NCBI GenBank assembly: GCA_040222015.1
Contig: JAVJWO010000052.1
Location: forward strand, 1 to 64,000
DNA from: Coleofasciculus chthonoplastes F2-STO-03
GTDB taxonomy: Bacteria; Cyanobacteriota; Cyanobacteriia; Cyanobacteriales; Coleofasciculaceae
Length of the DNA: 64,000 nt
Direction: 5' to 3'
In this document: piece after piece, positions 23,956 through 42,663 of the stretch
How positions within the stretch are numbered: the stretch's first letter is position 1
How the letters are laid out: each line of letters begins with the position of its first letter
Notes under the pieces: generated by a model
What the model was told of the DNA's origin: nothing
Database searches by the model: none
Seen by the model: only the letters and a program-made list of their open reading frames with translations
Program-made: the position numbers and the translations under genes

Positions 23956-24303
23956 TTGAAACAACTTGTTGAATTTTCCTTAGACGACGACACCACGTTC
24001 TTCGTTGAGGTAGATGAACCTGAAACGGCGGCGGTGCAACGAGTCGCGTTACCCTCGGGGCGGTTAGCGTTGAAAGCTCAACAGTCCTTTGATCAGGCAC
24101 TTGATACTATTAAACCTGTCGCCTCTAAGATAATTTCCAAACTCAATGACCTCAATACACCCGCCGATGAAGTAGAAGTAAGATTTGGGCTGAAGTTAAC
24201 CGCTGACGCAGGCGCAGTCTTTACCTCAGTCGGTGGCGAAGTCAGCTATGAAATTACCTTGAAATGGAATCAGAGTCAATCTAAAAAACGTGATGGCAGA
24301 TAA
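23956..24303 (+). CDS. Trypco1 (trypsin co-occurring; CU044_2847 family) protein
   Basis: F..ALDTIKPVA...DEVEVRFGLKLTA.AG....ITLKW pattern; overlaps the trypsin gene. Confidence 0.8.
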   Translation: MKQLVEFSLDDDTTFFVEVDEPETAAVQRVALPSGRLALKAQQSFDQALDTIKPVASKIISKLNDLNTPADEVEVRFGLKLTADAGAVFTSVGGEVSYEITLKWNQSQSKKRDGR

Positions 24304-25168
24304 CTCAGCTTACCTAAATGCCTTTAAAACGGGGATTATTCGCATATCCCACGCCAATGGATTCGTGGTTGGGGCAGGATTTCTGGTATCTCCTAATTAT
24401 GTGTTGACCTGCGCTCATTTGGTAGCTCAAGCGCTGACGATTTCCCCAAATACCCCCGATGTGCCGACAGGTTTGATTGACCTAGATTTTCCTTTAATTG
24501 CACCGGGACAGAAAATTAAGGCAAGGGTAGAGTTTTGGCAACCCGTGAATCCTTCAGTAGCCGGAGAAGATATTGCCGGATTGAAAATAGAAGGTGAATG
24601 TCCGCCTGGAGTGCAACCTGTGCGGTTGGTTACAGCCGACGACGTTTGGCAACATCCAGTACGGGTGTTTGGCTTTCCCAGTGGACATAATGATGGCGTT
24701 TGGGCTACGGGGGTAATGCGCGGGGAACTAGGCAATGGGTGGATACAGATGGAAGCGGTTACTGTTACCGGTTATCGGGTAGAACCGGGGTTTAGTGGTG
24801 CGCCAGTGTGGGATGAAACCTTGTCGGGAGTTGTCGGGATGGCGGTAGCGGCGGAACGACAACGGGAGGGGGTTAAGGCGGCGTTTATGATTCCCACAAA
24901 GGTGTTGAGTCAAACTTGGTCGGTTCTTGGTCAATGGGTTCAAACAGGAATGAACACTAAACCCACATTGAGTCGAGTTCAGCAAGTCAAAGCTAGAGCT
25001 TTACAGAACCGTCTGGAAAGTTTAGTCGCTGATTATGAAAATACTTATAACCAATTAAATTATACGCCAAGTGCTGCTGATCGCAACATGATTAAACGAC
25101 GGTGTGATGACATTGAGCAGGAAATGACCGACGCTGAAAACGAACTTGATAGAATTATGAATCATTAA
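24290..25168 (+). CDS. Trypsin-like serine protease effector with C-terminal EAD-like helical adaptor
   Basis: Intact triad LTCAH / EDIA / GFSGAPV; C-terminal ~62 aa homologous to the N-termini of 25289 and 31804. Confidence 0.85.
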   Translation: MMADNSAYLNAFKTGIIRISHANGFVVGAGFLVSPNYVLTCAHLVAQALTISPNTPDVPTGLIDLDFPLIAPGQKIKARVEFWQPVNPSVAGEDIAGLKIEGECPPGVQPVRLVTADDVWQHPVRVFGFPSGHNDGVWATGVMRGELGNGWIQMEAVTVTGYRVEPGFSGAPVWDETLSGVVGMAVAAERQREGVKAAFMIPTKVLSQTWSVLGQWVQTGMNTKPTLSRVQQVKARALQNRLESLVADYENTYNQLNYTPSAADRNMIKRRCDDIEQEMTDAENELDRIMNH

Positions 25169-25288
25169 GTTTAACCATACTCTGACTCCTTTGTTGCCAA
25201 ATCGGGGCGGGTTTAGTTAAGTTAGGGATTTTCCAAAACGTTATCGGTAAAACCCGCCCCTACAGCCCTGCTTCTTATGCCTTAACCA

Positions 25289-26287
25289 ATGCCCAATGCC
25301 CTCAGCACAAAAAAAAAGATGCTTCAGGCTCAGCTTGATGCATTAATCGTAGATTACGAAAGTGTGTATCAGCAATTAAGCCACACAAGGGATAAAGCTG
25401 ATCGCAATCAGTTACAACGGAAAGCGGATGATTTATTTGAGCAGATGGAAAGGGTGGAAGCCCAACTGAATCAATGTCAGTCATCTCATACAACCTACAA
25501 CGATTATTATAAAAACTGGGAAGAACACCTGCCTCAGATTAATTATTCTCAAGCCAGTAAACTGTTTAATCGCATTTTTGACCACTTTGGCGAAAAAGGG
25601 GGCGCTGTCTTTTTCTTACTCCAGAATTGTCATCCCATGGGTGGGAAGTGGTGCATGGAAAAGATTAAGGCTTCTCTCAAGGATAAAGGGGTGTGGAGTC
25701 CTCGTGCGGTCGGCTTTGCCGCCTGGGAAAAGCCGAATCCCACAGATTTTATCCAGCGCTTAGGGACTAGCTTTAATCTGGAAGATAATACCAGTTCTGT
25801 AGAAGTAGCGACTCAACGCCTAATCGATAAAATTTATAACTATTTGCAAATTGACAGCACCGTATTTCTGGAGATTCGACTCTTCTCCCTGGATAGCAAA
25901 TCTGACTTTTTAGCCTGGTTAATTCATCAATTCTGGGTTCCTTTAATCAGCCGCTTGCGATTAATTCGCCAGGAACTTCCCTTAGTTAAATTTGTTGCCG
26001 TTATGGTGGTGGAGACGGAAATGCCTCAAACTTGTCGGTCTCCTGATCTATTTTGTCAAGGGGGTAAGTTGAGTCCTCAGAAGATTATTGAACTAAAACT
26101 AGGCAACTGGACGGAAAAAGAAATCAGAACTTGGTTATATCGATACTCCGGTTTGGCGACGCCTCATGTCGGACGAACGCCAAGGGAAATTGAGCAGATG
26201 TCTCGTATGGTTTACCAAGTGAGTCAAGGTAGACCGATTGATGTTTATAGTTACCTGATGAACGAGTTGACTCGAATTTTCGGTTAA
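25289..26287 (+). CDS. EAD-like adaptor + inactive STAND (iSTAND) protein
   Basis: Shared N-terminal helical domain; P-loop-like strand FFLLQNCHPMGGKW without Walker A GKT; directly upstream of MoxR. Confidence 0.7.
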   Translation: MPNALSTKKKMLQAQLDALIVDYESVYQQLSHTRDKADRNQLQRKADDLFEQMERVEAQLNQCQSSHTTYNDYYKNWEEHLPQINYSQASKLFNRIFDHFGEKGGAVFFLLQNCHPMGGKWCMEKIKASLKDKGVWSPRAVGFAAWEKPNPTDFIQRLGTSFNLEDNTSSVEVATQRLIDKIYNYLQIDSTVFLEIRLFSLDSKSDFLAWLIHQFWVPLISRLRLIRQELPLVKFVAVMVVETEMPQTCRSPDLFCQGGKLSPQKIIELKLGNWTEKEIRTWLYRYSGLATPHVGRTPREIEQMSRMVYQVSQGRPIDVYSYLMNELTRIFG

Positions 26288-26306
26288 GTTTGAGGGAATT
26301 GATGTC

Positions 26307-27239
26307 ATGAATTCGACCACTGAATACAAGTTTCAAGGTAATCCTAAGGCTCGACCAAAATCAGCTCATCCGGATTCTCCCCAAACCCCTGAACCCTATA
26401 TTGCCCCGGATGAATTGATTCAGGCAGTAAATTTGGCAATTTATCTGCGGCGACCGTTATTATTAGAAGGAGAAGCCGGGTGTGGTAAAACGCGATTGGC
26501 TCGTGCGGTGGCGTATGAATTAGGATTACCGTTTTATCGTTGGGATATACGCTCGACGAGTAAAGCTCAAGAGGGTCTTTATCACTATGATGCTATCTTA
26601 CGTTTGCATGATGTGCAGATTCAGCAGTTAGAGACGCTGGACAAGAGTGACCAAAGTCGCAATCCCAGTAATCCCAAATACTATCGCAAATTGGGCGCAT
26701 TGGGGAAAGCGTTTGTGCTGAAATCCTGTCCGGCGGTGGTGTTGATTGATGAAATTGATAAGGCAGATATTGATTTTCCCAATGATTTGCTTGCAGTTTT
26801 AGATGAGCCGTGGGAATTTACGATTCCGGAGACAAGGGAAATTTTTCAGGCTAATTATCCGCCCATTGTGATGATTACCAGTAATAAGGAAAAGGGGAAT
26901 TTACCAGCACCGTTTTTACGCCGTTGTTTATATTATTTTGTTGAATTTCCCAGTCAAGAGCGCTTAAAGGAAATTGTCGCGATTCACTATCAGATGCAGC
27001 AAATGACAGCTCCGGCGAGTGAGTTAGTGGAGACAGCAACAGAACGGTTTATTCAAGTGCGTCAGGAGGGAGGGTTATTTAAGCTTCCCGGAACGAGTGA
27101 ATTTTTAGATTGGTTGAAAGCACTGCAAACCTTTGAAAAGACACCCTATCAGGCAGAAAAATTAGCGGAGGAGAAGCGGCTTCCTTATCGGGAATTATTA
27201 TTTAAGCTGCGGGCGGATTGGCAAAACTATGCTGTATAG
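26307..27239 (+). CDS. MoxR-family AAA+ ATPase (module 1)
   Basis: RPLLLEGEAGCGKT, VVLIDEIDKADIDFPNDLL, LPAPFLRRC. Confidence 0.92.
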   Translation: MNSTTEYKFQGNPKARPKSAHPDSPQTPEPYIAPDELIQAVNLAIYLRRPLLLEGEAGCGKTRLARAVAYELGLPFYRWDIRSTSKAQEGLYHYDAILRLHDVQIQQLETLDKSDQSRNPSNPKYYRKLGALGKAFVLKSCPAVVLIDEIDKADIDFPNDLLAVLDEPWEFTIPETREIFQANYPPIVMITSNKEKGNLPAPFLRRCLYYFVEFPSQERLKEIVAIHYQMQQMTAPASELVETATERFIQVRQEGGLFKLPGTSEFLDWLKALQTFEKTPYQAEKLAEEKRLPYRELLFKLRADWQNYAV

Positions 27240-27379
27240 GTTTATTCGTCATGTATACGCAAAATCGTAGGGTGCGTTAGCAAAGCGTAACGCACCATGT
27301 CTATGACTGTTACTTTAAAAACGGGTAAACCCACTCCGACAATTGCTGACAGACGTGCCATGGCACGTCTCTACATGAT

Positions 27380-28444
27380 GTGAAAAACGATATCATTCAG
27401 CCCATCCTATCTCGCCTATTTAACCGCTTACGTCAAAGTGGATTCAATTTGGGTGTGGGTGAATATCGGGCAGCGCTACAGGCAATTGAAGGGGGCTATG
27501 GGTCAAGTAGCCGGAACGAACTCAAACGGGTGTTAACGTTACTCTGGTGTCATTCCCGCGCCGAACAAAGCCAGTTTCAGTTCATTTGGGAATCGGTAAT
27601 CGCAGACACCTCAACGGTGGAACCGAAACCACCACGCCGCACCTCTAAACCGGAACCCTCACCAGAACCCCAAGATAAACCGCTACCCGCTCCCTCACCT
27701 CAACCTGTAGAATCGGTGCAACCCCAACCCGCTCTAGAATTAGCGCCTTTGCCGGTTCGCGCTCCCTTTACCCCGGTTGAAGCGGAAGATACCCCCCAAC
27801 TACAAACCGATAGACCCATTTCCCGCCGTGCGATGGTTTATAGTTGGCGTTATCTGCGCCGTCCGATTCTGGATGGTCCAGAGGATGTTTTGGATGAGCA
27901 GGCGACGGTGGAAACCGTGGCACGTCAGGGATTTTTTCTCACCCCCGTTTATCGACGCCGGGAACGGAATGCGGCTCATTTGCTGTTGTTAATCGACCAA
28001 GATGGGTCAATGACACCCTTCCATCGTTTTACCCGTGACTTGGTGGAAACGGCGCAATATGAAAGTTCGATTGGGCAAGTGGATGTTAGCTATTTTCACA
28101 ATATTCCGGCAAAAAGCGTTTATCGTGACCCCTATTTGACCCAACCTGTCGTTTTGGAGCGGGTGTTAGCCACCTGTGATAATAACACCAGTATTTTCAT
28201 CGTCAGTGATGCGGGGGCGGCGCGGGGGTATCGGCGGTTAGAGCGAATTCGAGCCACGACGGAGGTATTATTTCAAATTAAGCAACAGACCAATTTGATT
28301 GCTTGGTTAAATCCCATGCCCCAGGAGCGTTGGGGGAGTACCTCAGCTCAACTCATTGCCCATCTGGTGCCAATGTATCCCATGGATAATGATGGATTAA
28401 GTCATGCGATCGATATTGTACGCGGACAGCCGTTGTCACCGTAG
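27380..28444 (+). CDS. vWA (CoxE-like) domain protein (module 1)
   Basis: MIDAS-like LLIDQDGSM, IVSDAGAARG, AWLNPMP..RW. Confidence 0.85.
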   Translation: MKNDIIQPILSRLFNRLRQSGFNLGVGEYRAALQAIEGGYGSSSRNELKRVLTLLWCHSRAEQSQFQFIWESVIADTSTVEPKPPRRTSKPEPSPEPQDKPLPAPSPQPVESVQPQPALELAPLPVRAPFTPVEAEDTPQLQTDRPISRRAMVYSWRYLRRPILDGPEDVLDEQATVETVARQGFFLTPVYRRRERNAAHLLLLIDQDGSMTPFHRFTRDLVETAQYESSIGQVDVSYFHNIPAKSVYRDPYLTQPVVLERVLATCDNNTSIFIVSDAGAARGYRRLERIRATTEVLFQIKQQTNLIAWLNPMPQERWGSTSAQLIAHLVPMYPMDNDGLSHAIDIVRGQPLSP

Positions 28445-28494
28445 GGGCGCACCGACGTGCGCCCTTTCCCGACGTGCGCTCTTTCCCAACGTGC
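28441..28494. repeat. GGGCGCACGTCGG tandem/palindromic repeat family (also 28640-28663, 33445-33505, 35617-35630, 36390-36413)
   Basis: Related copies in both orientations, all inside the conflict locus. Confidence 0.7.
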
Positions 28495-28692
28495 TAAAGA
28501 GTTTTAGGTTGGGTTGACGCCTGTTACCCAACAAAATCATCACTGATGGGATACGACTCTATACCTTATTTGCGGTGGGTTACGCTTCGCTAACCCACCC
28601 TACAAATCTAAAATTGGGGATAGATTTTGCCATTGAATTGGGCGCACTGACGTGCGCCCCTACAAATTTTCCATAAGAACAACCATGAATTC

Positions 28693-30291
28693 ATGAATAC
28701 CGCCACTGTACCTAACCGAGATAAGGAAATTGCCAGACAACGGGTGAACCAATTTGTCCGGCGATTTGAGGAATCTTATCGGCTTTTGGCGTATCATGCG
28801 GCACTTCCTTTGGTGTTAACCCCGGAACTGCTCAATTATCTGCGGAATCAATTTCTGCGGGGACAAGTGCCTTGGCTGGCGGAAGTGGATTTGTTGCTCT
28901 CGGAGTTGTGTACTCCGGTGGGGTATGAACTCTATGCCATGGATACCGCCGTTCGTGCCTATTTGCTGGAGGAAATGCATAATGATGCCGCACTCTCCAG
29001 CCAACGGATGCAGGAGGTGGCTCGATTATTGTTAGGGTATGTCCGTCATCTGGCACAGACGAATCCGTTTATTAGTAAACAGGAATTAGAGGCGCAACAG
29101 TGGGCGGCAATGGTGTACCTTGATAACCAGCGAGAGAATGCTGTGCGTCAGATTGTGCAGGCGTTTCAAGAGAGTCGGGCAATCGGGGGAAGTCGCTGGC
29201 AAACCGAAATGGCGCGTTTATCCCGGATTACGCAGGAACTTGCCCCTCAATTAAGGGCTTACCCAAATCTGTTAGAGTATGCCGAGTTAATTACTCGGTT
29301 TGTGGCTGAACCTGAATCAGTGAATCCCGAACCTGGGAAGGATTCCTATCAAGTTCTAGGGGAAACCCTGGAAGTCCCTGGACAATCGGTTACCTACAAG
29401 CTGGAGATTGCCCATGGTAAGAGTTCATTTCCCCCCTTGCAGGTGTTTGAGTTTGGGGTGGTGAGGGTTGATAGAAAGGGGACTATCATTGACAAAACTC
29501 AGAAGCAAACGCAATATTTTCGGGAAGATTTGGGCAATGGTGTCACCTTGGATATGGTGGCGATTCCTGGAGGGTCATTCATGATGGGTTCTCCAGAAAC
29601 GGAAGAAAAACACAGAGATAGTGAAAGTCCTCAGCATTCGGTAACGGTTCAACCCTTTTTCATGGGGAAATACCCGGTGACTCAGGCGCAATGGCAGGCG
29701 GTTGCTAATCTGCCTCAAGTGGATAAAAAACTTGACCCTGACCCGTCCGGATTTAAAGGATCAGATCGACCCGTTGAGCAAGTATCGTGGTATGATTGCG
29801 TGGAGTTTTGTGCGCGGTTGTCGCAGTACACAGGACGAGACTACCGACTTCCTAGTGAAGCCGAGTGGGAATATGCTTGTCGTGCGGGAACAACAATGCC
29901 GTTTCATTTTGGCGAAACAATTACCACAGATTTAGCCAATTACAACGGCAACTATACTTATGCTGAAGGTCATAAGGGTGAGTATCGTGAACAGACTATC
30001 CCAGTCAGGAGTTTTCAGGTTGCGAACGCCTTTGGCTTATTTGACATGCATGGAAATGTGTGGGAATGGTGTGCTGACCATTGGCATGATAGTTATGAAG
30101 GTGCGCCGTCGGATGGTCAAGCTTGGTTAATTAATAATGATAATAAGAATCATTCTCGGCTGTTGCGCGGTGGTTCGTGGGTCAACTATCCCTGGTACTG
30201 TCGTTGTGCCTATCGCATCGGGGTTACCCCAGACAGCAGGGGCAACGGCAGCGGGTTTCGGGTTGTCTGTGGTGCGGCGTGGACTCTTTAG
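28693..30291 (+). CDS. Receptor 1: vWA-partner helical domain + FGE-sulfatase (CLec-fold) domain; DGR target gene
   Basis: F.MGS, RLPSEAEWEYACRAG, NAFGLFDMHGNVWEW, RGGSW...GFRVV; 3' variable region; avd fragment immediately downstream. Confidence 0.88.
   Translation: MNTATVPNRDKEIARQRVNQFVRRFEESYRLLAYHAALPLVLTPELLNYLRNQFLRGQVPWLAEVDLLLSELCTPVGYELYAMDTAVRAYLLEEMHNDAALSSQRMQEVARLLLGYVRHLAQTNPFISKQELEAQQWAAMVYLDNQRENAVRQIVQAFQESRAIGGSRWQTEMARLSRITQELAPQLRAYPNLLEYAELITRFVAEPESVNPEPGKDSYQVLGETLEVPGQSVTYKLEIAHGKSSFPPLQVFEFGVVRVDRKGTIIDKTQKQTQYFREDLGNGVTLDMVAIPGGSFMMGSPETEEKHRDSESPQHSVTVQPFFMGKYPVTQAQWQAVANLPQVDKKLDPDPSGFKGSDRPVEQVSWYDCVEFCARLSQYTGRDYRLPSEAEWEYACRAGTTMPFHFGETITTDLANYNGNYTYAEGHKGEYREQTIPVRSFQVANAFGLFDMHGNVWEWCADHWHDSYEGAPSDGQAWLINNDNKNHSRLLRGGSWVNYPWYCRCAYRIGVTPDSRGNGSGFRVVCGAAWTL
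30157..30291 (+). repeat. DGR variable region VR1
   Basis: Against 40293-40436, 20 of 21 mismatches in the 24-codon core fall at codon positions 1-2. Confidence 0.8.
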
Positions 30292-30357
30292 CCCTTGACA
30301 CTTTTGCCCTTTTACCCTCTACCCTGTTTTCTTTTCCCTCTTCCCGCCGCAGGCGGG
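30292..30357 (+). promoter_or_regulatory. Putative DGR cis-element: pyrimidine-rich IMH-like tract + hairpin CCCGCC-GCA-GGCGGG (30343-30357)
   Basis: Perfect 6-bp GC stem with a 3-nt G-N-A loop, ~50 nt after the VR; could also act as a terminator (T-tract follows). Confidence 0.6.
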
Positions 30358-30438
30358 TCGATTTTTTTTGAGATTTATACCCAATGGCAATCGTCTGCCG
30401 GAATATCTCCTGTAACTTTTTAATGTACGATTGAGTCT

Positions 30439-30585
30439 GTGAGCGATTTACCGATTATCCAGAAAACCTACGATTTGATTCGCTGGTACATCCCGATTCT
30501 TAACCGCCTGCCGCGAAATCATAAGTTTCTCTTAGGGGATCGGATCATTAGTAGATTGTATGATCTTTTAGACGGATTGATTATA
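30439..30585 (+). pseudogene. avd: 5' fragment of DGR accessory protein Avd
   Basis: MSDLPIIQKTYDLIRWYIPILNRLPRNHKFLLGDRI...LYDLLDGLII is the typical cyanobacterial Avd N-terminus; the frame runs into repeat DNA after codon 49. Confidence 0.82.
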
Positions 30586-30623
30586 AATTATAGCACGGCA
30601 ATTTGTAAGGGCACGGCAATGCC

Positions 30624-30763
30624 CATGGGTGTCAACTTAAGGTGCAAACTAATACTGACAAGGTTTTAAGCTGTGTCTGTCTACTCCTCGACATTTCCCC
30701 CTCATCCCCTAACCCCTTCTCCCACCGTGGGGAGAAGGGGTTGAGCTTAAGTTGACACGGATG
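30624..30763. mobile_element. MITE (GTGTCAACTTAAG TIR) flanked by the 9-bp duplication GGCAATGCC
   Basis: GGCAATGCC at 30615-30623 and 30764-30772; an uninterrupted copy of the host palindrome lies at 56899-56927. Confidence 0.75.
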
Positions 30764-30924
30764 GGCAATGCCGTGCCCCTACCATTGGTAATACCAAACC
30801 GCCTTTGAAACCCCTTTTTTGCCTTGGCGAGGAGTAAGTCGCAGCTACACAAGCAAAGTCCGCCTGCGCGGACTAGATTATAAAGAGGGTGGCTAACCCG
30901 GATTTGGTATAACTCGGTATTAGG

Positions 30925-31027
30925 TAAGCTGTAATGCATTTAAATTGGGTATTAGTAGCGAGCAAGATGCTCGCACTACAAGGATTGTGCAATTATTGAT
31001 ATTAAGGTTTAAATGCCGAACAGCTTA
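30925..31027. mobile_element. 103-bp MITE-like repeat (TAAGCTGT...ACAGCTTA), copy 1
   Basis: Near-identical inverted copy at 31645-31747; third copy at 44753-44863. Confidence 0.8.
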
Positions 31028-31153
31028 TCGGGATATTTTCTCTGCTTGTATTTTCACAACAGTACTGGTTGCAGCATCTGGGTTGTCTTCGCAAATGTAG
31101 GCATGAAGCTGCTCAAGGTTGCGTAGTGCTTTACGTAACCATCTAACGTCCAT
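31025..31153 (-). pseudogene. Truncated RelE/ParE toxin
   Basis: MDVRWLRKALRNLEQLHAYICEDNPDAA... (42 aa); the stop codon is supplied by the MITE end. Confidence 0.7.
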
Positions 31154-31385
31154 GGGTCAACCGAGTAAAGACGGCGGTTACCTCGTCTTCACTGGCGAAA
31201 TCCCCAGCATCGGCTTCAGCGATACCCTGCTGAATCTCTTGCAGTTGCCACTGATGCATTTCCAGGTAAGCATTGATTGCCTGATTCAATACATAGGTTA
31301 AATTACGATCCATACCAGCAGCAATAGCATCCAGTGCAGCTCTCTTATTTGGATCAAGTCGAAAGGTTACATTTTCCTTGCTCAT
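31143..31385 (-). CDS. CopG/RHH antitoxin (80 aa)
   Basis: MSKENVTFRLD...LDAIA...DR...LNQAI...WQ..EI..GIAEADAGDFAS. Confidence 0.8.
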   Translation of the reverse strand: MSKENVTFRLDPNKRAALDAIAAGMDRNLTYVLNQAINAYLEMHQWQLQEIQQGIAEADAGDFASEDEVTAVFTRLTHGR

Positions 31386-31471
31386 CAGACACGTCCTTCG
31401 TTGAGGGTTGGTTGAAATGCAGCAGCACTCTTTTATCATGCACTGTATTGCATTGCATTGCAAAAAGAACG

Positions 31472-31597
31472 TTACCTGACTGGATTCGGGTACGAACCGA
31501 AAACCTGCACCGCGCCAGACGCCGCATCCGCCGCCTACAAACGGACTACAATCAGGGTAAAACCGGTCAAGCGGTTGACCAATCCCTACAAAGCTAG
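31472..31597 (+). pseudogene. C-terminal fragment of DGR reverse transcriptase
   Basis: LPDWIRVRTENLHRARRRIRRLQTDYNQGK...QSLQS* resembles the segment after FLGFR in cyanobacterial DGR RTs; strand and order relative to avd fit. Confidence 0.65.
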
Positions 31598-31644
31598 GCA
31601 GTCGGTGACGATATGCGAAAATCAAACTAGGTTGGGTCGCCTGG

Positions 31645-31747
31645 TAAGCTGTTCGGCATTTCAACCTTAATATCAATAATGGCACAATCCTTGTAGTGCG
31701 AGCATCTTGCTCGCTACTAATACCCAATTTAAATGCATGACAGCTTA
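31645..31747. mobile_element. 103-bp MITE-like repeat, copy 2 (inverted)
   Basis: Reverse complement of 30925-31027 with a few mismatches. Confidence 0.8.
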
Positions 31748-31803
31748 AGCTCATGCTGAACGGTTATCCAACGCCTAAAATAACTTAGGAATTTGTTTCG
31801 AGA

Positions 31804-33165
31804 ATGGTATTCAATCGGTCTGTGCAAGTTAGGATCAGGTGTTTACAGCGTCGCTTTGATTTACTCGAACAGAACTATACTGATATATCGGAGCAATTGA
31901 ACTATGAAAGCAATGCTCAGAATCGGAATAATTTAAAACGACAGCTTGCTCACCTGGAAAAAGAGATGACAATCGTTGAGGACGAACTCAACACTCTTGA
32001 ACGGGGAAACGTAGGAGATAAAACTCAGCGCCTTATGGCTATTTTAGCCTCTGTTGATCCGCCAACAACCCAACGGATCAAGGCAGCTTACCTAGCATCT
32101 CGCCCTTCCAGCTGGAGTGATTTTCGTCCCGCCATTCCCCCCACAATCGAACAACTGTTGGCAGATTTAGCTGATATGCCTTCTGGGGATAGTGGGTACA
32201 AGCGAATGGATCAGTTTGTGGCACATTTAATTGCCGATGATCAAATTCCTCAGTCCTTGCGTCAACAGTTACACGATTGGCTGAAGCAAAACGTTGATGA
32301 TATTGCTCCATTACTAACTCAAATTAAACCTGAAACCGACCCAGAACAATTTTATCTCATGGTATGGATTCAGCCCAGCCAGCAAAAAAAGAATTGTTAT
32401 TTTATCAAAGCCTGGTTAGCGATTCCTCGCCCATCGAATCAGGGAGAAAGCAACTATGACTACGAACCCATTTCTCTAGCCAATACTGAAGCCGAACCCG
32501 TTTCCTTGACTCAGATTCCCCAGTTACTCAAAGAAATTCTGATTCAAAGTAGCCAAAAATGTGCGATGAGTGACTTAACCCTGGAATTTTTCTTACCTCG
32601 TCAGTTACTTAATCATGATGTTGATCGGTGGGAAATTGAGATCAGTGAGGATTTGTTAATTCCCCTTGGCGTGGAATGTAGCGTTGTCGTGCGTTCTGAG
32701 GAGCGACTTTCACCAAATTATTGTCTCAAAAAGAAAGATTGGCAGAAAAAATGGCAGCGACTCAAGCGACTTAACCATTACCCTTCCTCTAAACTTGTTG
32801 CTTCAGGGGATTGTGCTTGGAATCAACTCTATGTTGAGTTAAGAAAAGAGGATATTCTTGGCTGTACTCTAGCCAAGGTTCCCCAACCGATGGGAAAAGA
32901 AAGCGTTTTTAATGTGATTTTAGGGACAGCGATACCTTTAGCGATATGGGTACGGTGTAATTTAGCGCATTTAAATTGTTCCCAAGAATTAAATCAATTA
33001 TTAACGTGTTGTATTTCTGAACTTCCAACTACGATAAAAGGAAAACGGGAAGCGGCTTTTGCGTCTCATCCCCACCTGCGCGGACTGCATATTGGCTCTC
33101 ATCTTTCCCTGATGTGGGAAGATCCCGATCGCGTCCCACCTACGATTCACTATTCTACACCTTAA
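31804..33165 (+). CDS. VMAP (vWA-MoxR associated protein) with N-terminal EAD-like adaptor
   Basis: VMAP-C motifs LEFFLPRQLLNHDVDRW, VVVRS.ERL, WQKKW, PLAIW.R, LMWEDPDR.PP; upstream of MoxR. Confidence 0.8.
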   Translation: MVFNRSVQVRIRCLQRRFDLLEQNYTDISEQLNYESNAQNRNNLKRQLAHLEKEMTIVEDELNTLERGNVGDKTQRLMAILASVDPPTTQRIKAAYLASRPSSWSDFRPAIPPTIEQLLADLADMPSGDSGYKRMDQFVAHLIADDQIPQSLRQQLHDWLKQNVDDIAPLLTQIKPETDPEQFYLMVWIQPSQQKKNCYFIKAWLAIPRPSNQGESNYDYEPISLANTEAEPVSLTQIPQLLKEILIQSSQKCAMSDLTLEFFLPRQLLNHDVDRWEIEISEDLLIPLGVECSVVVRSEERLSPNYCLKKKDWQKKWQRLKRLNHYPSSKLVASGDCAWNQLYVELRKEDILGCTLAKVPQPMGKESVFNVILGTAIPLAIWVRCNLAHLNCSQELNQLLTCCISELPTTIKGKREAAFASHPHLRGLHIGSHLSLMWEDPDRVPPTIHYSTP

Positions 33166-33559: not shown

Positions 33560-34567
33560 ATGAATAATGAGCAATCAAAAAATTGGCAGATTTTTCAGGG
33601 AACCGGAACTCCCCACAGCGAAATAAATCGCCTTCCGCCCCCTCCAAGCTGGCGTCAATTTGATGGACTAGCAGATGGTGCTACCGCCGCCAAAAAGCAG
33701 CAACGGGGGGCTACGTTTCAGGCGCGTCCAGAGGAAATTGAACTCGTTAATGCAGCACTGTATTTACGACGCCCTCTATTAGTCACTGGAAAACCGGGAA
33801 CGGGAAAAACCTCACTGGCTTATGCGATCGCGTATGAATTACAATTAGGAGAAGTGTTAAGGTGGTCAATTACTACGCGCACCAATCTCAACGATGGACT
33901 TTACCGCTATGATGCCATTGGTCGCTTACAAGATGCCCAAGGTAAGGGTGAAGATAACTTAGAGGAGATTGGTCAGTATATCCGGTTAGGTCCTCTGGGA
34001 ACCGCTTTGCTTCCCTCTGATAAACCCAGGGTATTACTAATTGATGAAATTGACAAAAGCGATATTGATTTACCCAATGATTTGCTGCATATTTTTGAGG
34101 AAGGAGAGTTTGAGATTCCGGAGTTGGTTCGGATTGCTGGCAGATTAGAACAAGTGGAAGTTCGTACCGCTTATGGCGATGAGACGGAGATAACGGCGAA
34201 CGATTTCAAGACAGTTATTAGCAAAGGACGAGTCCGCTGTCAAGCTTTTCCGTTTGTGATTTTAACGAATAATGGAGAGCGAGATTTTCCGCCACCGTTT
34301 TTACGTCGCTGTCTGCGGCTGAATATGAGGGAACCCAATCAGGATGAACTCACCCGAATTGTTAAAGCGCATTTGGGTGAAAAAGTGGCGGATAAAGCCA
34401 AGGGTTTGATTGCTCATTTTTTAAAGAAGCGAGAACAGGGAGATTTAGCTACGGATCAGTTACTTAATGCGATTTATTTACTTACTCGTGAACGGATACC
34501 ATCAGGTCAAGAAAAAGCGAAGTTAGTTGAGCAATTGCTCAAGTATTTGAGTAGTACAGAAGATTGA
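33560..34567 (+). CDS. MoxR-family AAA+ ATPase (module 2)
   Basis: PPPPSWR, GKPGTGKT, LLIDEIDKSDIDLPNDLL, FPPPFLRRC. Confidence 0.92.
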   Translation: MNNEQSKNWQIFQGTGTPHSEINRLPPPPSWRQFDGLADGATAAKKQQRGATFQARPEEIELVNAALYLRRPLLVTGKPGTGKTSLAYAIAYELQLGEVLRWSITTRTNLNDGLYRYDAIGRLQDAQGKGEDNLEEIGQYIRLGPLGTALLPSDKPRVLLIDEIDKSDIDLPNDLLHIFEEGEFEIPELVRIAGRLEQVEVRTAYGDETEITANDFKTVISKGRVRCQAFPFVILTNNGERDFPPPFLRRCLRLNMREPNQDELTRIVKAHLGEKVADKAKGLIAHFLKKREQGDLATDQLLNAIYLLTRERIPSGQEKAKLVEQLLKYLSSTED

Positions 34568-34801
34568 TTCCTGTCCTTAGATAGCCCTCACCCCCAACCC
34601 CTCTCCCAAGGGTGGGAGAGGGGAGCAAGAGTATGTAGCAAGAGTATGTAGGGTGGGCAAGAATGATAAATCTGGAAATGCTTATAGTATCGTTAATTGC
34701 TCTTGCCCACCTCACGGTAACTGGCTTTGACTATAGGGTTCTTTATGGAATATAAATGGTGCGTTACGCTTCTCTAACGCACCCTACGATTCTGAGTTTA
34801 T

Positions 34802-35449
34802 TTATCTCATATTGTCAGAAGTTGATAGATGAATAAGTTTTTTTAAGATTCTCAAGACATCACCTAAACCATTTTTGCGATTGCCAATTCCAAACAAATC
34901 AGACATGGCATACAGAGGGGTAGCGGCTTTGACTAATTTGAGAAACAGAAAACTTCCTCCATTCGTAATCATACCGAAGCTAGGTTGCTCTGAATTAAGG
35001 TTTCCTAGCATATAGGCAAGAATTTGGGCTAATCCAGCTTCGACAGAGAAATGAGCTTGTTTTGATTCAATTACCATCACCCAAAGTTTGTCTTTCAAAA
35101 CTAAGGTGTCGAGGTTCCCTTTGACGAGAATTCCTAGTTCTTCATCTTGGGCGGAGATTTGGACACTGCTCTCGGCTCTTAAATTCAAAGGCGCTAAATA
35201 AAATTGTCCGATAAATAATAAGGGGGAGACAACTGCCAAATTAATGGGTTTTTCTAGCAGGGGTGGTTGTTTGAGTAAATTGAAATAGCCAGCGCGGACT
35301 TGTTCGAGAAGTTGTTTTTGCCAGTCGGTGAGTTCGGGTAAGTCGGATTGCCACTCCGGGAAAAACTGTTCATCGTCAACTCGCTGAAGCTGAAAGTAGG
35401 TTTCTAATTGTTCTAGAGTGACATCTCTGGCTTGAATGGTTTGAACCAT
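34802..35449 (-). CDS. HsdR-N-like PD-(D/E)XK restriction-endonuclease-fold protein
   Basis: GNLD...VIESK...QILAYM...GMITNG pattern. Confidence 0.7.
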   Translation of the reverse strand: MVQTIQARDVTLEQLETYFQLQRVDDEQFFPEWQSDLPELTDWQKQLLEQVRAGYFNLLKQPPLLEKPINLAVVSPLLFIGQFYLAPLNLRAESSVQISAQDEELGILVKGNLDTLVLKDKLWVMVIESKQAHFSVEAGLAQILAYMLGNLNSEQPSFGMITNGGSFLFLKLVKAATPLYAMSDLFGIGNRKNGLGDVLRILKKLIHLSTSDNMR

Positions 35450-35576
35450 ACTATAAAAGAATAGGGGATAAAGTTTTGTACTAGGTTGTTGATTGGCTTT
35501 AGAGGAATTGTAGCTTAAGTGGGATAAGGCAGAAGGAAAGAAAGAAGTTTAGAGAAAATCTGCTGTACAATGTGCC

Positions 35577-35599
35577 TATGATTCAACAGGCGATCGCAC
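35577..35599 (+). repeat. 23-bp direct repeat TATGATTCAACAGGCGATCGCAC (also 36321-36343 and 36438-36460, the start of the vWA gene)
   Basis: Three exact copies, each containing HIP1. Confidence 0.85.
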
Positions 35600-35824
35600 G
35601 ACTCAATCGGCTTCTGTGGGCGCACGTCGGTTATTGGTGTCAAGTTAAGCTACAGCCGTCACGCCTATGCCTGTCTCCCAAGCGTGACAGAGGAGAGCAA
35701 TAGGGCAGACGTAGCCTCATTCTCAGGTTTTAGAAGGGAATGAATCGCCGCCAAATCATTGCATTTGTTTGCCTGGTAATTTTCAGCCTACAATAGACCC
35801 AGAAAGCCGTTCTATGAGCAGAAT

Positions 35825-36013
35825 ATGGAAGCCATCAATATAAAAGAAGAGGCACGACGATTGATTGATAGATTGCCAGAGAATGCGACATGGGATGACT
35901 TAATGTATGAAATTTATGTCAGGGTAGCGATAGAAGCGGGACTTGCGGATAGTCAGGCGGGTAGAATAACCTCTGTGGAAACAGTGCGTCAGCAATTCGG
36001 ATTACCAACGTGA
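35825..36013 (+). CDS. Antitoxin
   Basis: KEEARRLIDRLPENATWDDLMYEIYVR..IEAGLAD; overlaps the toxin start. Confidence 0.75.
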   Translation: MEAINIKEEARRLIDRLPENATWDDLMYEIYVRVAIEAGLADSQAGRITSVETVRQQFGLPT

Positions 36014-36312
36014 AGGTTTTTTGGACAGATACAGCCGTCAAGCATCTTTCCGGGATTTATGCCTACATCGCCCAAAATTCACCTCAATATGGGCGTCGAA
36101 TGGTTGATCGTCTGACGAGACGTTCGGAACAGATTGCTGCGTTTCCGGCTTCAGGTCGAATGGTGCCAGAGTTTGAGAGGGAACAAATTCGTGAAGTGAT
36201 TGAGGGTTCTTATCGGATTATTTACTACATTAAACCCGAGCAAATCGATGTACTTGCTGTGATCCATGGTTCGCAACAAATCACTGAAGATTATTCCCCA
36301 TCATCGGAGTAA
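36010..36312 (+). CDS. RelE/ParE-family toxin
   Basis: VFWT..A...L..I..YIA..SP...GR.VPE...IRE....YRIIY...VIHG. Confidence 0.85.
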   Translation: MKVFWTDTAVKHLSGIYAYIAQNSPQYGRRMVDRLTRRSEQIAAFPASGRMVPEFEREQIREVIEGSYRIIYYIKPEQIDVLAVIHGSQQITEDYSPSSE

Positions 36313-36438
36313 AATGTCCGTATGATTCAACAGGCGATCGCACGTTTCAATCTAGTTTTCTGGGTGCAGGTTGGGGTTGGGGTTGGGATTGGGCGCACGT
36401 CAGTGCGCCCCTACGAGGCTCATTGATTTCTATTCTCT

Positions 36439-39400
36439 ATGATTCAACAGGCGATCGCACTCCTTAATCAGGTTGGCTTAGAACTTACGGCAGAAGAGAT
36501 TGCCGATATCTTTTGGTTGGCGCTGCAAATGGGGGAAACGGAATCCGTCTCCGAGTCTCCATCTATCCCGAAAACGCCCTTATCTGAACGCCCCATAACT
36601 GAAGACTTCTCCCCAGAAACGCCGCCGATAAATTTAAATCCACCAACTACTACGGCTAGCGAACCCTACGCTGAACTCTATCCCTCTCCTCCACCTGCTT
36701 CTATCCCCCAGTCTGATTCTCATTCTCCGCCATCTGCTTCTTCTCCATCCCCTCAGCTAGATTCTCCCCCACCGTCTCAACTCCTTCCCTTTGAAACGCC
36801 AGCCGCCCCCGCCCTGCGGAATCCTTTAGCCATCGCCCGGGCAATTCGTCCCCTGATGCGGAAAGTCCCATCTCGTACTGAAACCATTCTGGATGAAGAA
36901 GCCACAGCCCGACAAATTGCCGAAAAAAATATCTGGATTCCGGTGCTAGAACCTGCACCCGAACGCTGGTTAGAATTAGCGCTGGTTATTGAGGAATCGA
37001 GTTCTCTCCCAATTTGGCAAGAAACGATTACAGAATTGCAAACGCTGTTGGAACGCCAAGGTGCGTTTCGCGATGTCCGCACCTGGCGCTTAAATGCTGA
37101 TGCCGATGAGTCATTGTACCTCTTGCCGGGACAGGGTTCAGCCACACTCAAACAACGCCCCCGCAATCCCAAGGAATTGATTGATCCCTCAGGGCGGCGG
37201 TTAATTCTCCTGGTTAGCGACTGTGTATCTGATATCTGGCGTTCAGGCAAAATCCAGACTCTGTTGCGGCGGTGGGCAAATCAGAATCCCGTGTCAGTGC
37301 TTCAGTTATTACCCGAATCCTATTGGAGACGCAGTGGTTTAGGTGCAGGGATTTCCGTGCAACTGGGGGCGTTTGCACCAGGAGTTCCCAATTCCCAACT
37401 GGTAATTGAAGAGATACCCCCCTGGCTGGAGGTGAATTTAGCCACAGCATTACCATTACCTGTGGTAACACTGGAGCCTGAACCTTTGGCACAGTGGGCG
37501 CGGCTGGTGGCGGGTACAGGGGGAACGCGGATGCCGGGAGTGTTATTTGATCCGGCGTTAATGGAGGCGATGGCTGAGGAGATGGAACAGATAATCGCCT
37601 CATGTTCAGCATCAGAGTTAGTCCAGCACTTTCGGGCAACGGCGTCTCCCACCGCCCGACGCTTGGCAGGGTTAATGGCGGCGATTCCGGTAACGTTGCC
37701 TGTGGTGCGTCTGATTCAGGAAACCATGCTGCCAGAATCGGGGCAGATTCATATTGCTGAAGTGTTTATGAGTGGGTTATTGCGTCCCATTTTAGAAGGG
37801 AATGGTAATTCACCAGATGGGAAAAACCTCTCTCCAAACCTCTCTCCTGCAAGGAGAGAGGCTTTGAATGATCCCCCTTCCTACCCCTTCGTGGAAGCAA
37901 GCTACGCAGGAAAGGGGGCTGGGGGGTTAAGTTTTTCCCATCAATCTGAACCTATTTACTATGATTTTCAACCCGGAGTGCGGGAATTGTTGCTGGATTC
38001 TATTCCCATTTCCGATACCGATGAAGTGTTGGAACAAGTGTCTCAGTTTATCGCCCGTAAAGCCGGGGTTTCGATTAAGAGCTTTACCGCGTTCCTCTCG
38101 CCTTATGCCAAATGGGATGAAACGGTGCAGCAGCAGATTGCGCCCTTCGCTCAGGTTACCCGTCAGGTTCTGCGGCGGTTGGGAGGAGAGTATGCGGCGT
38201 TAGCGGAGCAGTTGGAACGACGTTCTCCGGTTATTCCTGATATCTCAGATAATGAGGCTTCTGGGTTTCCTCCCTTACAAACCTTTACGTTTGAAGAGGT
38301 AACTATCTCCCTTAAAGCTGAGACAGAAACCGCCCTTGATCTGCAAGCATTTGATTTTAAAGTGGCAAAGATACAGATACGGAATGCTGTTAAAACTGCT
38401 GAGGAAGCCGTTTTTGCTATGACAGGACGATCATTTAACGATATTCAAAAAGGTATCCTAGGAGGAGCATTAAAAAATAAAACCTACGAAGAAATAGCGG
38501 TTTCAGGATTATACAGCTCAGAGTATGTGAAATCTATAGGCGCTAAGTTATGGAAATTACTGACAGAAGCGTTGAATCAAAAAGTTAGTAAAACTAATCT
38601 GAATGCTGTGTTAGGCAAGGGATTAACGATTCACCATTTTCAGCAACAAGCTTGGAGTTTTACCGAGGATTTAGGTAAAGGAATTCAACTAGAGATGGTA
38701 GCCATTCCCGAAGGTAGCTTTGTCAGGGGGGCACCAGAGGACGAAACTGGACGGGAAAACTCTGAATCTCCTCAGCATACGGTCACAGTTAATTCCTTTT
38801 TTATGGGTAAATACACCATAACCCAGGCACAATGGCAAATCGTAGCTGATCTACCGCGAGTTAATCGTGAACTTGAACCTGATCCATCTGAGTTTAAAAG
38901 TGCAAACCGCCCTGTAGAGAATGTGTCCTGGTATGATGCTATGGAATTTTGCGATCGCCTTTCTCAGAAAACTGGACGACTCTATCGCCTACCCAGTGAA
39001 GCCGAGTGGGAGTATGCCTGTCGTGCGGGAACAACCACCCCATTTCATTTTGGAGAAACAATTACAATCGACTTGGCGAATTACCGAGGTACGGATGACA
39101 AAAGAAGGGGTTGGTCAGGTTCCTATGGTCAAAGTCCCAAAGGGATTGATCGTCAAGAAACAACTCCTGTAGGTAGCTTTAAGGTGGCTAATGATTTTGG
39201 ACTCTACGATATGCATGGGAATGTATGGGAATGGTGTGCTGACCCTTGGCACGAAAACTATGAAGGTGCGCCAACAGATGGCAGGGTGTGGAAGGATGAT
39301 AATGATCATGATAATGAGCATCGGGTATTGCGGGGCGGTTCCTGGTTTGACTTTCCTGTAAACTGCCGTTGCGCGTGTCGCTTCCATTATTCTTCAAATG

Positions 39401-39450
39401 ACAGGAACGTCCCCGTTATGGGTTTTCGAGTTGTATGCGCCGCCGAGTAG
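36439..39450 (+). CDS. Receptor 2: SAV_2336-type vWA protein fused to an HTH and an FGE-sulfatase/CLec domain
   Basis: EEIADIFWLA, LDEEATA, LALVIEESSS, LILLVSDCVS..W; C-terminal FGE motifs. Confidence 0.85.
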   Translation: MIQQAIALLNQVGLELTAEEIADIFWLALQMGETESVSESPSIPKTPLSERPITEDFSPETPPINLNPPTTTASEPYAELYPSPPPASIPQSDSHSPPSASSPSPQLDSPPPSQLLPFETPAAPALRNPLAIARAIRPLMRKVPSRTETILDEEATARQIAEKNIWIPVLEPAPERWLELALVIEESSSLPIWQETITELQTLLERQGAFRDVRTWRLNADADESLYLLPGQGSATLKQRPRNPKELIDPSGRRLILLVSDCVSDIWRSGKIQTLLRRWANQNPVSVLQLLPESYWRRSGLGAGISVQLGAFAPGVPNSQLVIEEIPPWLEVNLATALPLPVVTLEPEPLAQWARLVAGTGGTRMPGVLFDPALMEAMAEEMEQIIASCSASELVQHFRATASPTARRLAGLMAAIPVTLPVVRLIQETMLPESGQIHIAEVFMSGLLRPILEGNGNSPDGKNLSPNLSPARREALNDPPSYPFVEASYAGKGAGGLSFSHQSEPIYYDFQPGVRELLLDSIPISDTDEVLEQVSQFIARKAGVSIKSFTAFLSPYAKWDETVQQQIAPFAQVTRQVLRRLGGEYAALAEQLERRSPVIPDISDNEASGFPPLQTFTFEEVTISLKAETETALDLQAFDFKVAKIQIRNAVKTAEEAVFAMTGRSFNDIQKGILGGALKNKTYEEIAVSGLYSSEYVKSIGAKLWKLLTEALNQKVSKTNLNAVLGKGLTIHHFQQQAWSFTEDLGKGIQLEMVAIPEGSFVRGAPEDETGRENSESPQHTVTVNSFFMGKYTITQAQWQIVADLPRVNRELEPDPSEFKSANRPVENVSWYDAMEFCDRLSQKTGRLYRLPSEAEWEYACRAGTTTPFHFGETITIDLANYRGTDDKRRGWSGSYGQSPKGIDRQETTPVGSFKVANDFGLYDMHGNVWEWCADPWHENYEGAPTDGRVWKDDNDHDNEHRVLRGGSWFDFPVNCRCACRFHYSSNDRNVPVMGFRVVCAAE

Positions 39451-39563
39451 AGTTTGTAATCTTTGCCCTTTTATTGTCCTTCTTACTTATACGTAGCGTT
39501 AGCTAAATTTTCTTGCCTCTGTTGTTCAACTATTAAGCATATTGAATCTAAGGTGACAAAACT

Positions 39564-40436
39564 ATGGCAACACCGCAAATCAGTAATCAAGGACAGCAGA
39601 CTAGGTTTATTGTTAAGCGTCGGCAGCGACAGGCTCAATATTTCAGCGAAGACTTGGGCAATGGTATCTTCCTGGATATGGTGGCGATTCCTGGAGGGTC
39701 ATTCCTGATGGGTTCTCCGGAAACGGAAGAAGGACACAGAGATAGTGAAAGTCCCCAGCATCCAATAACGGTTCCACCCTTTTTCATGGGGAAATACCCG
39801 GTGACTCAAGCGCAATGGCGGGCGGTTGCTCATCTGCCTCAAGTTGATAAAGAACTTGACCCTGATCCATCTAGATTTAAAGGAGCCGATCAACCAGTTG
39901 AGGGAGTATCGTGGTATGACTGTGTAGAGTTTTGTGCGCGGTTATCGCAGTACACAGGACGAGACTACCGACTTCCTAGTGAAGCCGAGTGGGAATATGC
40001 CTGTCGTGCGGGAACAACAACGCCGTTTCATTTTGGCGAAACAATTAATACGGATTTAGCCAATTACAACGGCAAACGTATTTATGCTGAAGGTCATAAA
40101 GGTCATAAGGGTGAGTATCGTAAAAAGACTACCCCAGTCGGGAGTTTTCAGGTAGCGAATGCCTTTGGCTTATTCGATATGCATGGAAATGTGTGGGAAT
40201 GGTGTGCTGATCATTGGCATGATAGTTATGAAGGTGCGCCGTCGGATGGTCAAGCTTGGCTATTAGATAACAATAAAAATGAGAATCATTATCGGCTGAT
40301 GCGCGGTGGTTCGTGGTACGCCTTTCCCAGGAACTGTCGTTGTGCGTATCGCCTCAGGAATACCCCAGACTACGGGAACAACACCGTCGGGTGTCGGGTC
40401 GTCTGTGGTGCGGTGTGGACTCCTTTGCCCCCTTGA
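39564..40436 (+). CDS. Receptor 3: stand-alone FGE-sulfatase/CLec protein; DGR target-like
   Basis: Near-duplicate of the C-terminal domain of 28693..30291 with a different VR. Confidence 0.85.
   Translation: MATPQISNQGQQTRFIVKRRQRQAQYFSEDLGNGIFLDMVAIPGGSFLMGSPETEEGHRDSESPQHPITVPPFFMGKYPVTQAQWRAVAHLPQVDKELDPDPSRFKGADQPVEGVSWYDCVEFCARLSQYTGRDYRLPSEAEWEYACRAGTTTPFHFGETINTDLANYNGKRIYAEGHKGHKGEYRKKTTPVGSFQVANAFGLFDMHGNVWEWCADHWHDSYEGAPSDGQAWLLDNNKNENHYRLMRGGSWYAFPRNCRCAYRLRNTPDYGNNTVGCRVVCGAVWTPLPP
40293..40436 (+). repeat. DGR variable region VR3
   Basis: Colinear with VR1; differences concentrated at NNC/NNT/NGG codons. Confidence 0.75.
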
Positions 40437-42631: not shown

Positions 42632-42663
42632 ATCAGCAAGAAATTGCTCAAAACGCATCGTTT

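Follow-up and report, generated by a model that had tools for sequence, protein, structure and literature searches.

A tandem of iSTAND-type and VMAP-type MoxR-vWA ternary systems behind one EAD9 protease in Coleofasciculus chthonoplastes

MoxR-vWA ternary systems of the iSTAND and VMAP types, in which a third component accompanies a MoxR ATPase and a von Willebrand factor A (vWA) protein, were defined together with Trypco1 and with the domain EAD9 as a peptidase recruiter (Kaur et al. 2020, PMC7159879). In the same work, adjacent EADs were found to be more alike, several systems were reported per genome, and, of the VMAP systems in cyanobacteria and gammaproteobacteria, about 80% were linked to diversity-generating retroelements (DGRs). 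A split vWA/linker form has also been described, and DGR-linked FGE-sulfatase (FGS) domains have been likened to receptors of adaptive immunity (PMC8195603). The adaptive-immunity proposal is the thesis of a further study, which includes a case of two EAD8 sensors with one EAD8 trypsin (Dore et al. 2024, PMC10907252), and cyanobacterial targets can be retained after the DGR has been lost (Vallota-Eastman et al. 2020, PMC7517822). Herein, we describe a locus of Coleofasciculus chthonoplastes F2-STO-03 in which an iSTAND-type and a VMAP-type system follow one another behind a single EAD9-bearing, trypsin-like protease. The locus lies in the window, that is, the whole 64,000-nt stretch analysed (contig C52:1-64000, JAVJWO010000052.1), and the genome (G000) holds 7.72 Mb in 219 contigs. 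The likeness to adaptive immunity that a first-pass annotation of this DNA had drawn is not new, being already in print in two of these papers (PMC8195603, PMC10907252).

Two ternary modules and one protease

The core of the locus runs from Trypco1 through trypsin-EAD9, EAD9-iSTAND, MoxR, vWA and a C-type lectin (CLec) gene to DGR debris, and past this debris through EAD9-VMAP, MoxR, vWA-HTH-CLec (HTH, helix-turn-helix) and a lone CLec gene (Table 1). The genes named in the first-pass annotation were found where it had placed them, with Pfam cut-offs passed in a profile scan of the window proteins; the check by hidden Markov models that it had proposed for the genes at 25289 and 31804 returned the iSTAND and VMAP profiles, respectively, above cut-off. 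Its description of the locus as entirely plus-strand holds for the ten core genes and fails for the gaps, which hold two minus-strand genes or relics. No core protein of the window contains a 19-residue segment of hydropathy above 1.7.

Module 1 is a member of the published MoxR-vWA ternary systems of the iSTAND type, with an inactive STAND protein, a MoxR free of VMAP-type extensions and a CoxE-like vWA. The iSTAND protein scores 50 bits against PF19995 (cut-off 24) and carries GGKW instead of a GK[ST] P-loop, which fits an inactive STAND third component. The helical linker fused to CLec1 is probably a vWA-L region. Its profile matches the region that follows vWA in vWA2-type proteins weakly (E 6.5e-4, probability 28%), a single-sequence comparison with the vWA2 linker gave no significance, and its position, as a gene after vWA1, fits the split vWA-L arrangement of iSTAND systems. 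In the protease ahead of this module the catalytic triad motifs are intact (H43, D94 and S169, in TCAH, EDIA and GFSGAP), and a hydrophobic leader is absent.

Module 2 is likewise a member of the published ternary systems, of the VMAP type: VMAP-C and VMAP-M domains, the one-strand order VMAP, MoxR, vWA, the MoxR motifs and a vWA with a C-terminal FGS domain are all present. VMAP-type MoxR proteins are defined by the N-terminal motifs WxhapG and PsWRxa (PMC7159879), the counterparts of which are listed in Table 1. The vWA2 protein passes the NCBIfam model SAV_2336_NTERM (NF041121) with 502 bits against a cut-off of 200, and its HTH is a lead only (candidate HTH_VMAP-M9, Atlas score 0.79). Long Pro-rich or low-complexity linkers occur in vWA1, vWA2 and CLec1.

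Table 1. Features of the locus, in window coordinates.
Feature	Position	Strand	Evidence or remark
Trypco1 protein, 115 aa	23956..24303	+	PF19493 E 1.9e-25; 14-nt overlap with protease gene
Trypsin-like protease with C-terminal EAD9 (24971-25153)	24290..25168	+	PF13365 (Trypsin_2), PF19962 E 7e-20
EAD9-iSTAND, third component of module 1	25289..26287	+	PF19962 E 1.8e-21; PF19995 E 4.8e-13
MoxR AAA+ 1	26307..27239	+	Walker A GEAGCGKT, Walker B LIDE; VMAP-type N-terminal motifs absent
vWA 1, CoxE-like, stand-alone gene	27380..28444	+	PF05762 (VWA_CoxE) E 1.4e-9
Helical linker fused to CLec1; variable region VR1 ~30166-30279	28693..30291	+	PF03781 (FGE-sulfatase) E 6e-60
GC hairpin and T run after CLec1	30343..30370	+	Conserved in L025, ahead of avd of an intact DGR cassette; such sites at chance number regionally
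Truncated avd, residues 1-49 of 116	30439..30585	+	76% to intact Avd; NF033474 positions 1-45 of 104, below cut-off
Two inverted copies of a 108-nt repeat (30925-31032, 31640-31747)	30925..31747	.	139 copies in genome; bracket debris
RelB-like antitoxin (31143-31385) and truncated ParE-like toxin	31033..31385	-	NF048017 E 4e-6
DGR reverse transcriptase fragment, residues 283-326 of 352 (44 aa)	31466..31594	+	70% identity, E 3.3e-10 genome-wide
Remnant of post-template DGR RNA spacer	31601..31649	+	88% over 49 nt to L025; sole match in genome
EAD9-VMAP-M1-VMAP-C, third component of module 2	31804..33165	+	PF19962; PF19963 E 1e-28; PF20028 E 6e-38
MoxR AAA+ 2	33560..34567	+	WQIFQG at 9, PSWRQF at 29; Walker A/B intact
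HSDR_N / PD-(D/E)xK-like insert	34802..35449	-	PF13588 E 4e-4, below cut-off
Toxin-antitoxin insert: 65-aa partner and ParE toxin	35816..36312	+	ParE PF05016 E 2e-18
Three copies of first ~25-38 nt of vWA2 gene (35578, 36322, 36439)	35578..36474	+	Each with GCGATCGC octamer
vWA2-linker-HTH-CLec2, 1003 aa; VR2 ~39331-39447	36439..39450	+	NF041121; PF03781
Stand-alone CLec3, 290 aa; VR3 ~40302-40415	39564..40436	+	PF03781 E 3e-60

The two larger gaps (1512 nt between CLec1 and VMAP, 1871 nt between MoxR2 and vWA2) contain the DGR debris and multi-copy repeats, together with two toxin-antitoxin pairs, one broken and one whole, and the minus-strand HSDR_N-like gene; the two modules are probably not a single transcript. 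Promoter and terminator scans of the region returned chance numbers only (23 vs 25.8 and 18 vs 18.6). Contigs from the reads of four DNA runs cover parts of both modules and none spans both; in run X1, VMAP and vWA2 are without cover, which proves nothing either way.

The HSDR_N-like gene is missing at the corresponding place in the relative G002, and the ParE pair is lacking in G003; the 65-aa partner of ParE matches no family and, judged by position, is a putative antitoxin. Two of the three vWA2-start copies are dead ends at insertion joints, and comparison with relatives places every additional copy at the edge of an inserted block, either the HSDR_N-like gene or the ParE pair. Since the copies mark these joints, recombination at the GCGATCGC octamer is suggested as the route by which the gene blocks were inserted. 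This octamer, which occurs at 0.78 per kb, we take to be HIP1, a cyanobacterial mark. Elsewhere in the window, an intergenic 12-nt tandem repeat of five units occupies 17206-17265.

Origin and distribution of the tandem

The arrangement is best understood from a genome of another genus (G016), in which Trypco1, trypsin-EAD9, EAD9-VMAP, MoxR and vWA-CLec stand in one run, 67-86% identical to the window. Because the two sides of its protease/VMAP joint map to either side of a 6.6-kb insert (window 24958-25088 and 31803-31950), the locus is a trypsin-EAD9/VMAP operon with an iSTAND-DGR operon inserted between protease and VMAP. In its composition the insert matches iSTAND-DGR operons of other genomes, cassettes of iSTAND, CLec, avd, reverse transcriptase (RT) and template being found whole in G017, G047 and G357.

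Within the genus, the EAD9 island was found in four of nine genomes, the other five being without an EAD9 match. Both modules are present in G002, which bears out the co-occurrence elsewhere that the first-pass annotation had called for, while G003 has the VMAP half alone and G007 the iSTAND half, its VMAP half being deleted. The island is located beside trxB in G000 and G002 and, in G003 and G007, beside a gene that we take to be glgB-like, the other site being empty each time. On its flank in the window (40934-44388) lie two tandem paralogous membrane protein genes, about 70% alike in DNA, which in island-free relatives come directly after trxB.

Among 401 genomes of the order, with 15 candidates scored per genome, 47 bear EAD9, and one effector before two sensor modules was seen in three of these (G000, G002 and G053). 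A phylum survey found this layout in G000 only, among 32 of 401 genomes. It was found in none of 80 loci around iSTAND-type MoxR genes, the best 80 of 466 confirmed; contig ends truncated many of these loci, and about half were not ternary. Nor was it found in 14 further ternary loci from the genus. On this distribution, the iSTAND and VMAP mix is a single lineage's event. A metagenome scan with the iSTAND protein gave 46 pattern matches, none of which was confirmed. Comparison of eight genes with G002 gave ratios of nonsynonymous to synonymous differences (pN/pS) of 0.05-0.22 for core domains outside EAD9 and CLec, and both ternary modules are thus still maintained under purifying selection.

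Other arrangements of the same parts were also encountered. In G401 (L033), G185 (L035) and G397 (L036), Trypco1/trypsin-EAD9 heads another sensor pair, one member being an EAD9-ATPase (about 550 aa) and the other a STAND-TPR protein (about 930 aa). Furthermore, three EAD9 matches lie within 0.7 kb in G679:C344:600-1333, two of them in one frame.

A dead retroelement and its variable tips

The dead DGR that the first-pass annotation had placed between the modules is confirmed, since remnants of avd, RT and spacer could be mapped against intact cassettes of relatives. The template repeat itself is deleted from the locus. The same DGR remnants are carried by G002 and G007, and the RelB/ParE pair, whose ParE relic is cut off in the window by the left copy of the 108-nt repeat, is whole in G002 (PF05016 E 2e-20). 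No intact DGR RT was found in the genome, its four whole RTs being two of group II introns, an RT-Cas1 fusion and a Drt4-like protein. Across all nine genus genomes, a DGR RT query returned nothing above 32% identity and the template pattern was not found; the assemblies being drafts, these are to be read as not found and not as absent. The same query finds DGR RTs at 70-74% identity in other cyanobacteria. The template pattern occurs in four of 52 family genomes (five matches), or three of 52 after dropping L136, whose match was ruled out as a template and is a variable region. The variable regions (VRs) of the window match other CLec genes only, with no template found in the 219-contig assembly, and a DGR acting in trans, sought by family, protein, pattern and blastn searches, was not found. 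The DGR is dead. Present hypermutation, which the first-pass annotation had allowed for, is not supported, as neither RT nor template was found. With its mutator lost, the locus gives no evidence that adaptive immunity is still at work, and the published adaptive-immunity claim does not apply to its present state.

Past hypermutation of the CLec tips is supported by adenine-directed variation. Among five CLec1-type VRs, 42 of 120 sites are variable, and 26 of these fall on adenines of a homologous template, so that 26 of the 28 template adenines are variable (p 3e-13). With eight further template rows, p ranged from 4e-9 to 3e-13, the mis-called L136 excepted. Of the differences between VR1 and VR3 over 99 nt, 19 are at template-A sites and four elsewhere, so that the two belong to a common template class. 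VR2 has one extra codon and is 57-64% identical to VR1 and VR3, which places it in another template class. An assignment of all three receptors to one DGR is therefore not supported, CLec2 being of another class. Given the dead DGR, and with no DGR RT or template found in genus genomes, the tips are best regarded as fossil variants of past DGR mutagenesis, from two template classes.

In favour of fixed tips, neither VR2 nor VR3 differs between G000 and G003, though both lie inside a block with pS 0-0.07 that looks recently exchanged; over VR2, a contig of run X2 has one differing letter in 550 nt at a depth of 4.7. VR1 is only 58% identical in amino acids among G000, G002 and G007 despite their common dead DGR, and differs from its orthologs by 19-20 changes at codon positions 1-2 and 2-6 at position 3; either tip import by recombination or a since-lost element in trans could account for this. 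In G002, vWA2 (94% identical) is without the HTH and ends in a CLec1-type domain, a CLec swap.

Two further CLec loci were noted. About six lone CLec genes follow the vWA-CLec gene in G002:C51 (L009:1-3221, L010:8878-14082), some of them broken by an insertion element and each whole copy compared with its own variable tip. In G000:C218 (L007:5015-6844), the tip and downstream bases of a kinase-CLec gene belong to the CLec1 template class, 85% to VR1; the gene is a former remote DGR target.

Proposed sharing of the protease and comparison with described systems

Three EAD9 copies occur in the locus, on the trypsin, the iSTAND and the VMAP protein, so that the same family is found on a core component of each module and on a separate peptidase. 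The shared adaptor of the first-pass annotation thus holds as one domain family and does not hold as one sequence, the iSTAND and VMAP EAD9s being 25% identical. We nevertheless consider it rather probable that the protease is shared by both modules, with either polarity of signalling. Scoring of all 85 candidates in G002 yielded just three EAD9 copies, so that no EAD9 effector other than the trypsin is present there and the VMAP of G002 is left without an alternative. Furthermore, the EAD9 of the orthologous trypsin has only a VMAP-type EAD9 as its partner in G016 and only an iSTAND-type one in G007. An unrelated genome, G053, in which one effector stands before two sensor modules (see below), offers an independent precedent. 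In a comparison of 28 effectors with 31 adaptors, taken from EAD9 loci with a clear neighbour and leaving out loci without one, the own neighbour was the best match for 17 of the 28 effectors and within the top three for 24; the window adaptors rank 4 and 5 of 31 for the trypsin EAD9, with 37% and 33% identity. A complex prediction for the trypsin EAD9 (12-row alignment) with the VMAP EAD9 (3 rows) scored 0.07 against a mark of 0.32 and was used neither way.

A single effector for the whole genome is not supported, because a second EAD9 protease, of the CHAT type, heads a VMAP system on another contig. This second whole system (G000:C158, L006:4283-14221) comprises Trypco2, CHAT-EAD9, EAD9-VMAP, MoxR, vWA-CLec and two lone CLec genes, one of which has three C-terminal repeats; Trypco2 there accompanies the CHAT protease, not a trypsin.

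As an explanation of the whole locus, a composite island with two maintained modules feeding one trypsin as an OR gate fits best, and we give it about an even chance. All steps beyond the anatomy follow the models of PMC7159879 and PMC10907252. In the cytoplasm, each module would assemble its own third component with MoxR and vWA(-CLec) into a complex, and an invader molecule would be bound by the CLec tip, or by iSTAND or VMAP-M. Binding may then lead to ATP-dependent remodelling of the complex by MoxR through vWA, upon which the N-terminal EAD9 of iSTAND or VMAP would cluster and activate the trypsin via its C-terminal EAD9. The output would be an OR gate on arrest or death of the infected cell in the filament. 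After decay of the DGR, the CLec tips would be fixed and new alleles would arise by recombination or transfer only.

Several observations weigh against this explanation, and some of them speak for accretion of the modules without sharing, which we regard as possible and rather doubtful. Here, the inserted iSTAND operon would have captured the protease, leaving the VMAP module orphaned, either protease-free or using the CHAT-EAD9 of C158 in trans, and due to be lost as in G007. The identities of 33% and 37% between the trypsin EAD9 and its adaptors are below the median of 51% for 31 neighbour pairs, the two adaptors share the 25% given above, and the CHAT EAD9 is 32% identical to the window VMAP EAD9, so that partners are not assignable by sequence. 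The trypsin and iSTAND EAD9s have turned over as a block between relatives (63-79% in amino acids), while the VMAP EAD9, at 97% identity, has not. In this block pS reaches 0.31-0.47 against 0.13-0.23 in the flanks (G002, G007) and pN is raised too; the joint rise is a mark of block replacement, and it is as if only the trypsin/iSTAND pair co-evolved. Either half is lost in a close relative (G003, G007), 1.5 kb of debris with a terminator-like hairpin separates the modules, and insertions part MoxR2 from vWA2 by 1.9 kb. No experiments on iSTAND or VMAP systems were found in searches of the literature, and the one tested MoxR-vWA pathway found is a kinase-signalling pathway of the beta-propeller type (bioRxiv 10.64898/2026.09.08.750141). 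An orphaned VMAP module is at odds, however, with the intact state of VMAP, MoxR2 and vWA2 under purifying selection in G000 and G002 (pN/pS 0.05-0.21), with the lack of another EAD9 effector in G002, and with the comparison to G016, in which conservation of the VMAP EAD9 matches that of the rest of the protein (66% vs 67%).

The polarity of signalling is a separate matter, on which PMC7159879 and PMC10907252 disagree. In a reversed scheme (Kaur 2020), which overlaps the OR-gate explanation in wiring and which we think improbable, iSTAND and VMAP would sense, the trypsin would cut the vWA/linker proteins, and the released CLec would bind or sequester the invader. The classing of EAD9-linked peptidases as signalling parts and of FGS as effectors (PMC7159879), the description of iSTAND as an invader sensor (PMC8195603) and the long linkers of vWA1, vWA2 and CLec1 speak for it; the confinement of adenine-directed variation to the CLec tip, which fits a receptor (PMC10907252), and the stand-alone CLec3, which requires no release, speak against it. 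Less probable still is a role outside defence, in which the locus would act as a switch in the signalling or development of a filamentous cyanobacterium, with CLec binding an endogenous or environmental ligand. In favour of this, cyanobacterial DGR targets have been read as regulatory (PMC7517822), PADLOC gave weak domain hits with no system-level match found, and fixed CLec alleles were retained after loss of the DGR. The patchy presence of the island among the genus genomes, its two chromosomal sites that are empty in relatives, the module and domain swaps and the embedded toxin-antitoxin pairs fit conflict loci instead.

A broader idea, which we advance tentatively, is that EAD9 pairs serve as an exchangeable address code, with the trypsin EAD9 as a hub for two dissimilar addresses and with a frozen CLec library reshuffled by recombination. 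The head-to-tail arrangement of the two EAD9s, C-terminal in the effector and N-terminal in the adaptor, would allow the pair to be swapped in a single recombination. In G003:C84 (L015:14607-16881), both EAD9s are replaced, being 29-32% identical to those of the window and 69% to each other, and the surrounding bodies are 94% (protease) and 95% (VMAP) identical to the window. In G053, one PNPase-EAD9 effector precedes two iSTAND modules, and its EAD9 shares 56% and 59% identity with theirs; the body of the second module is 22-31% identical to the first, and before it lies a decayed 398-nt, 79% copy of the effector-end/EAD9 joint (G053:C8, L023:7364-7759). The second module thus seems to have been re-addressed to the resident PNPase effector. 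Such a DNA-level duplication of the joint was not found in the window, and grafting of an EAD joint was not found in the accessible literature. If the address code is true, copying an EAD9 joint would plug a foreign sensor module into a resident effector, as in G053, and the locus would work as an OR gate in a bacterium, comparable to the Death-domain hubs of animals. Should the two modules indeed act on the one protease, the locus would offer a ready test of the putative EAD coupling principle: its single effector has two natural adaptors, the genome also holds a non-cognate pair (C158), and relatives carry swapped pairs. The series found in nature (VMAP only, iSTAND only, both) also shows sensor gain in MoxR-vWA systems.

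Two different ternary systems in tandem behind a single EAD protease were not found in the accessible literature, and Figure 1-source data 1 of Kaur 2020 may hold such a case. Compared with VMAP systems of the DGR-associated cyanobacterial type (PMC7159879), module 2 has the same VMAP-MoxR-vWA order, EAD9-VMAP-M1-VMAP-C architecture and MoxR motifs, as well as the fusion of vWA to FGS/CLec and an EAD copy on a trypsin with Trypco1. It differs in that a second ternary system stands between it and the EAD9 protease, which is 6.6 kb upstream, that two insertions split MoxR and vWA, and that template and RT were not found in the genome. Module 1 shares with iSTAND systems (PMC7159879, PMC8195603) the EAD-iSTAND protein, the MoxR without VMAP extensions, the CoxE-like vWA, the separate gene for FGS with its probable linker and the adjoining EAD-trypsin, and differs in being followed by a VMAP system with the same EAD family. 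As in DGR-diversified antigen sensors of multicellular bacteria (PMC10907252), CLec VRs are found on vWA proteins beside MoxR, Trypco1 and trypsin, and DGR 6 of that study likewise has two sensors, EAD8 STANDs, with one EAD8 trypsin. The DGRs described there are intact and active and the DGR 6 sensors are paralogous STANDs, whereas in the window the DGR no longer functions and each module represents a different ternary type. With cyanobacterial DGR targets (PMC7517822) the genome shares stand-alone and kinase-fused CLec paralogs and the loss of DGR parts with the target kept, but no DGR was found in the genus sample, so that the window CLecs are not remote targets of a resident element. Altogether, the tandem is a rare lineage-level variant built from known members of known families.

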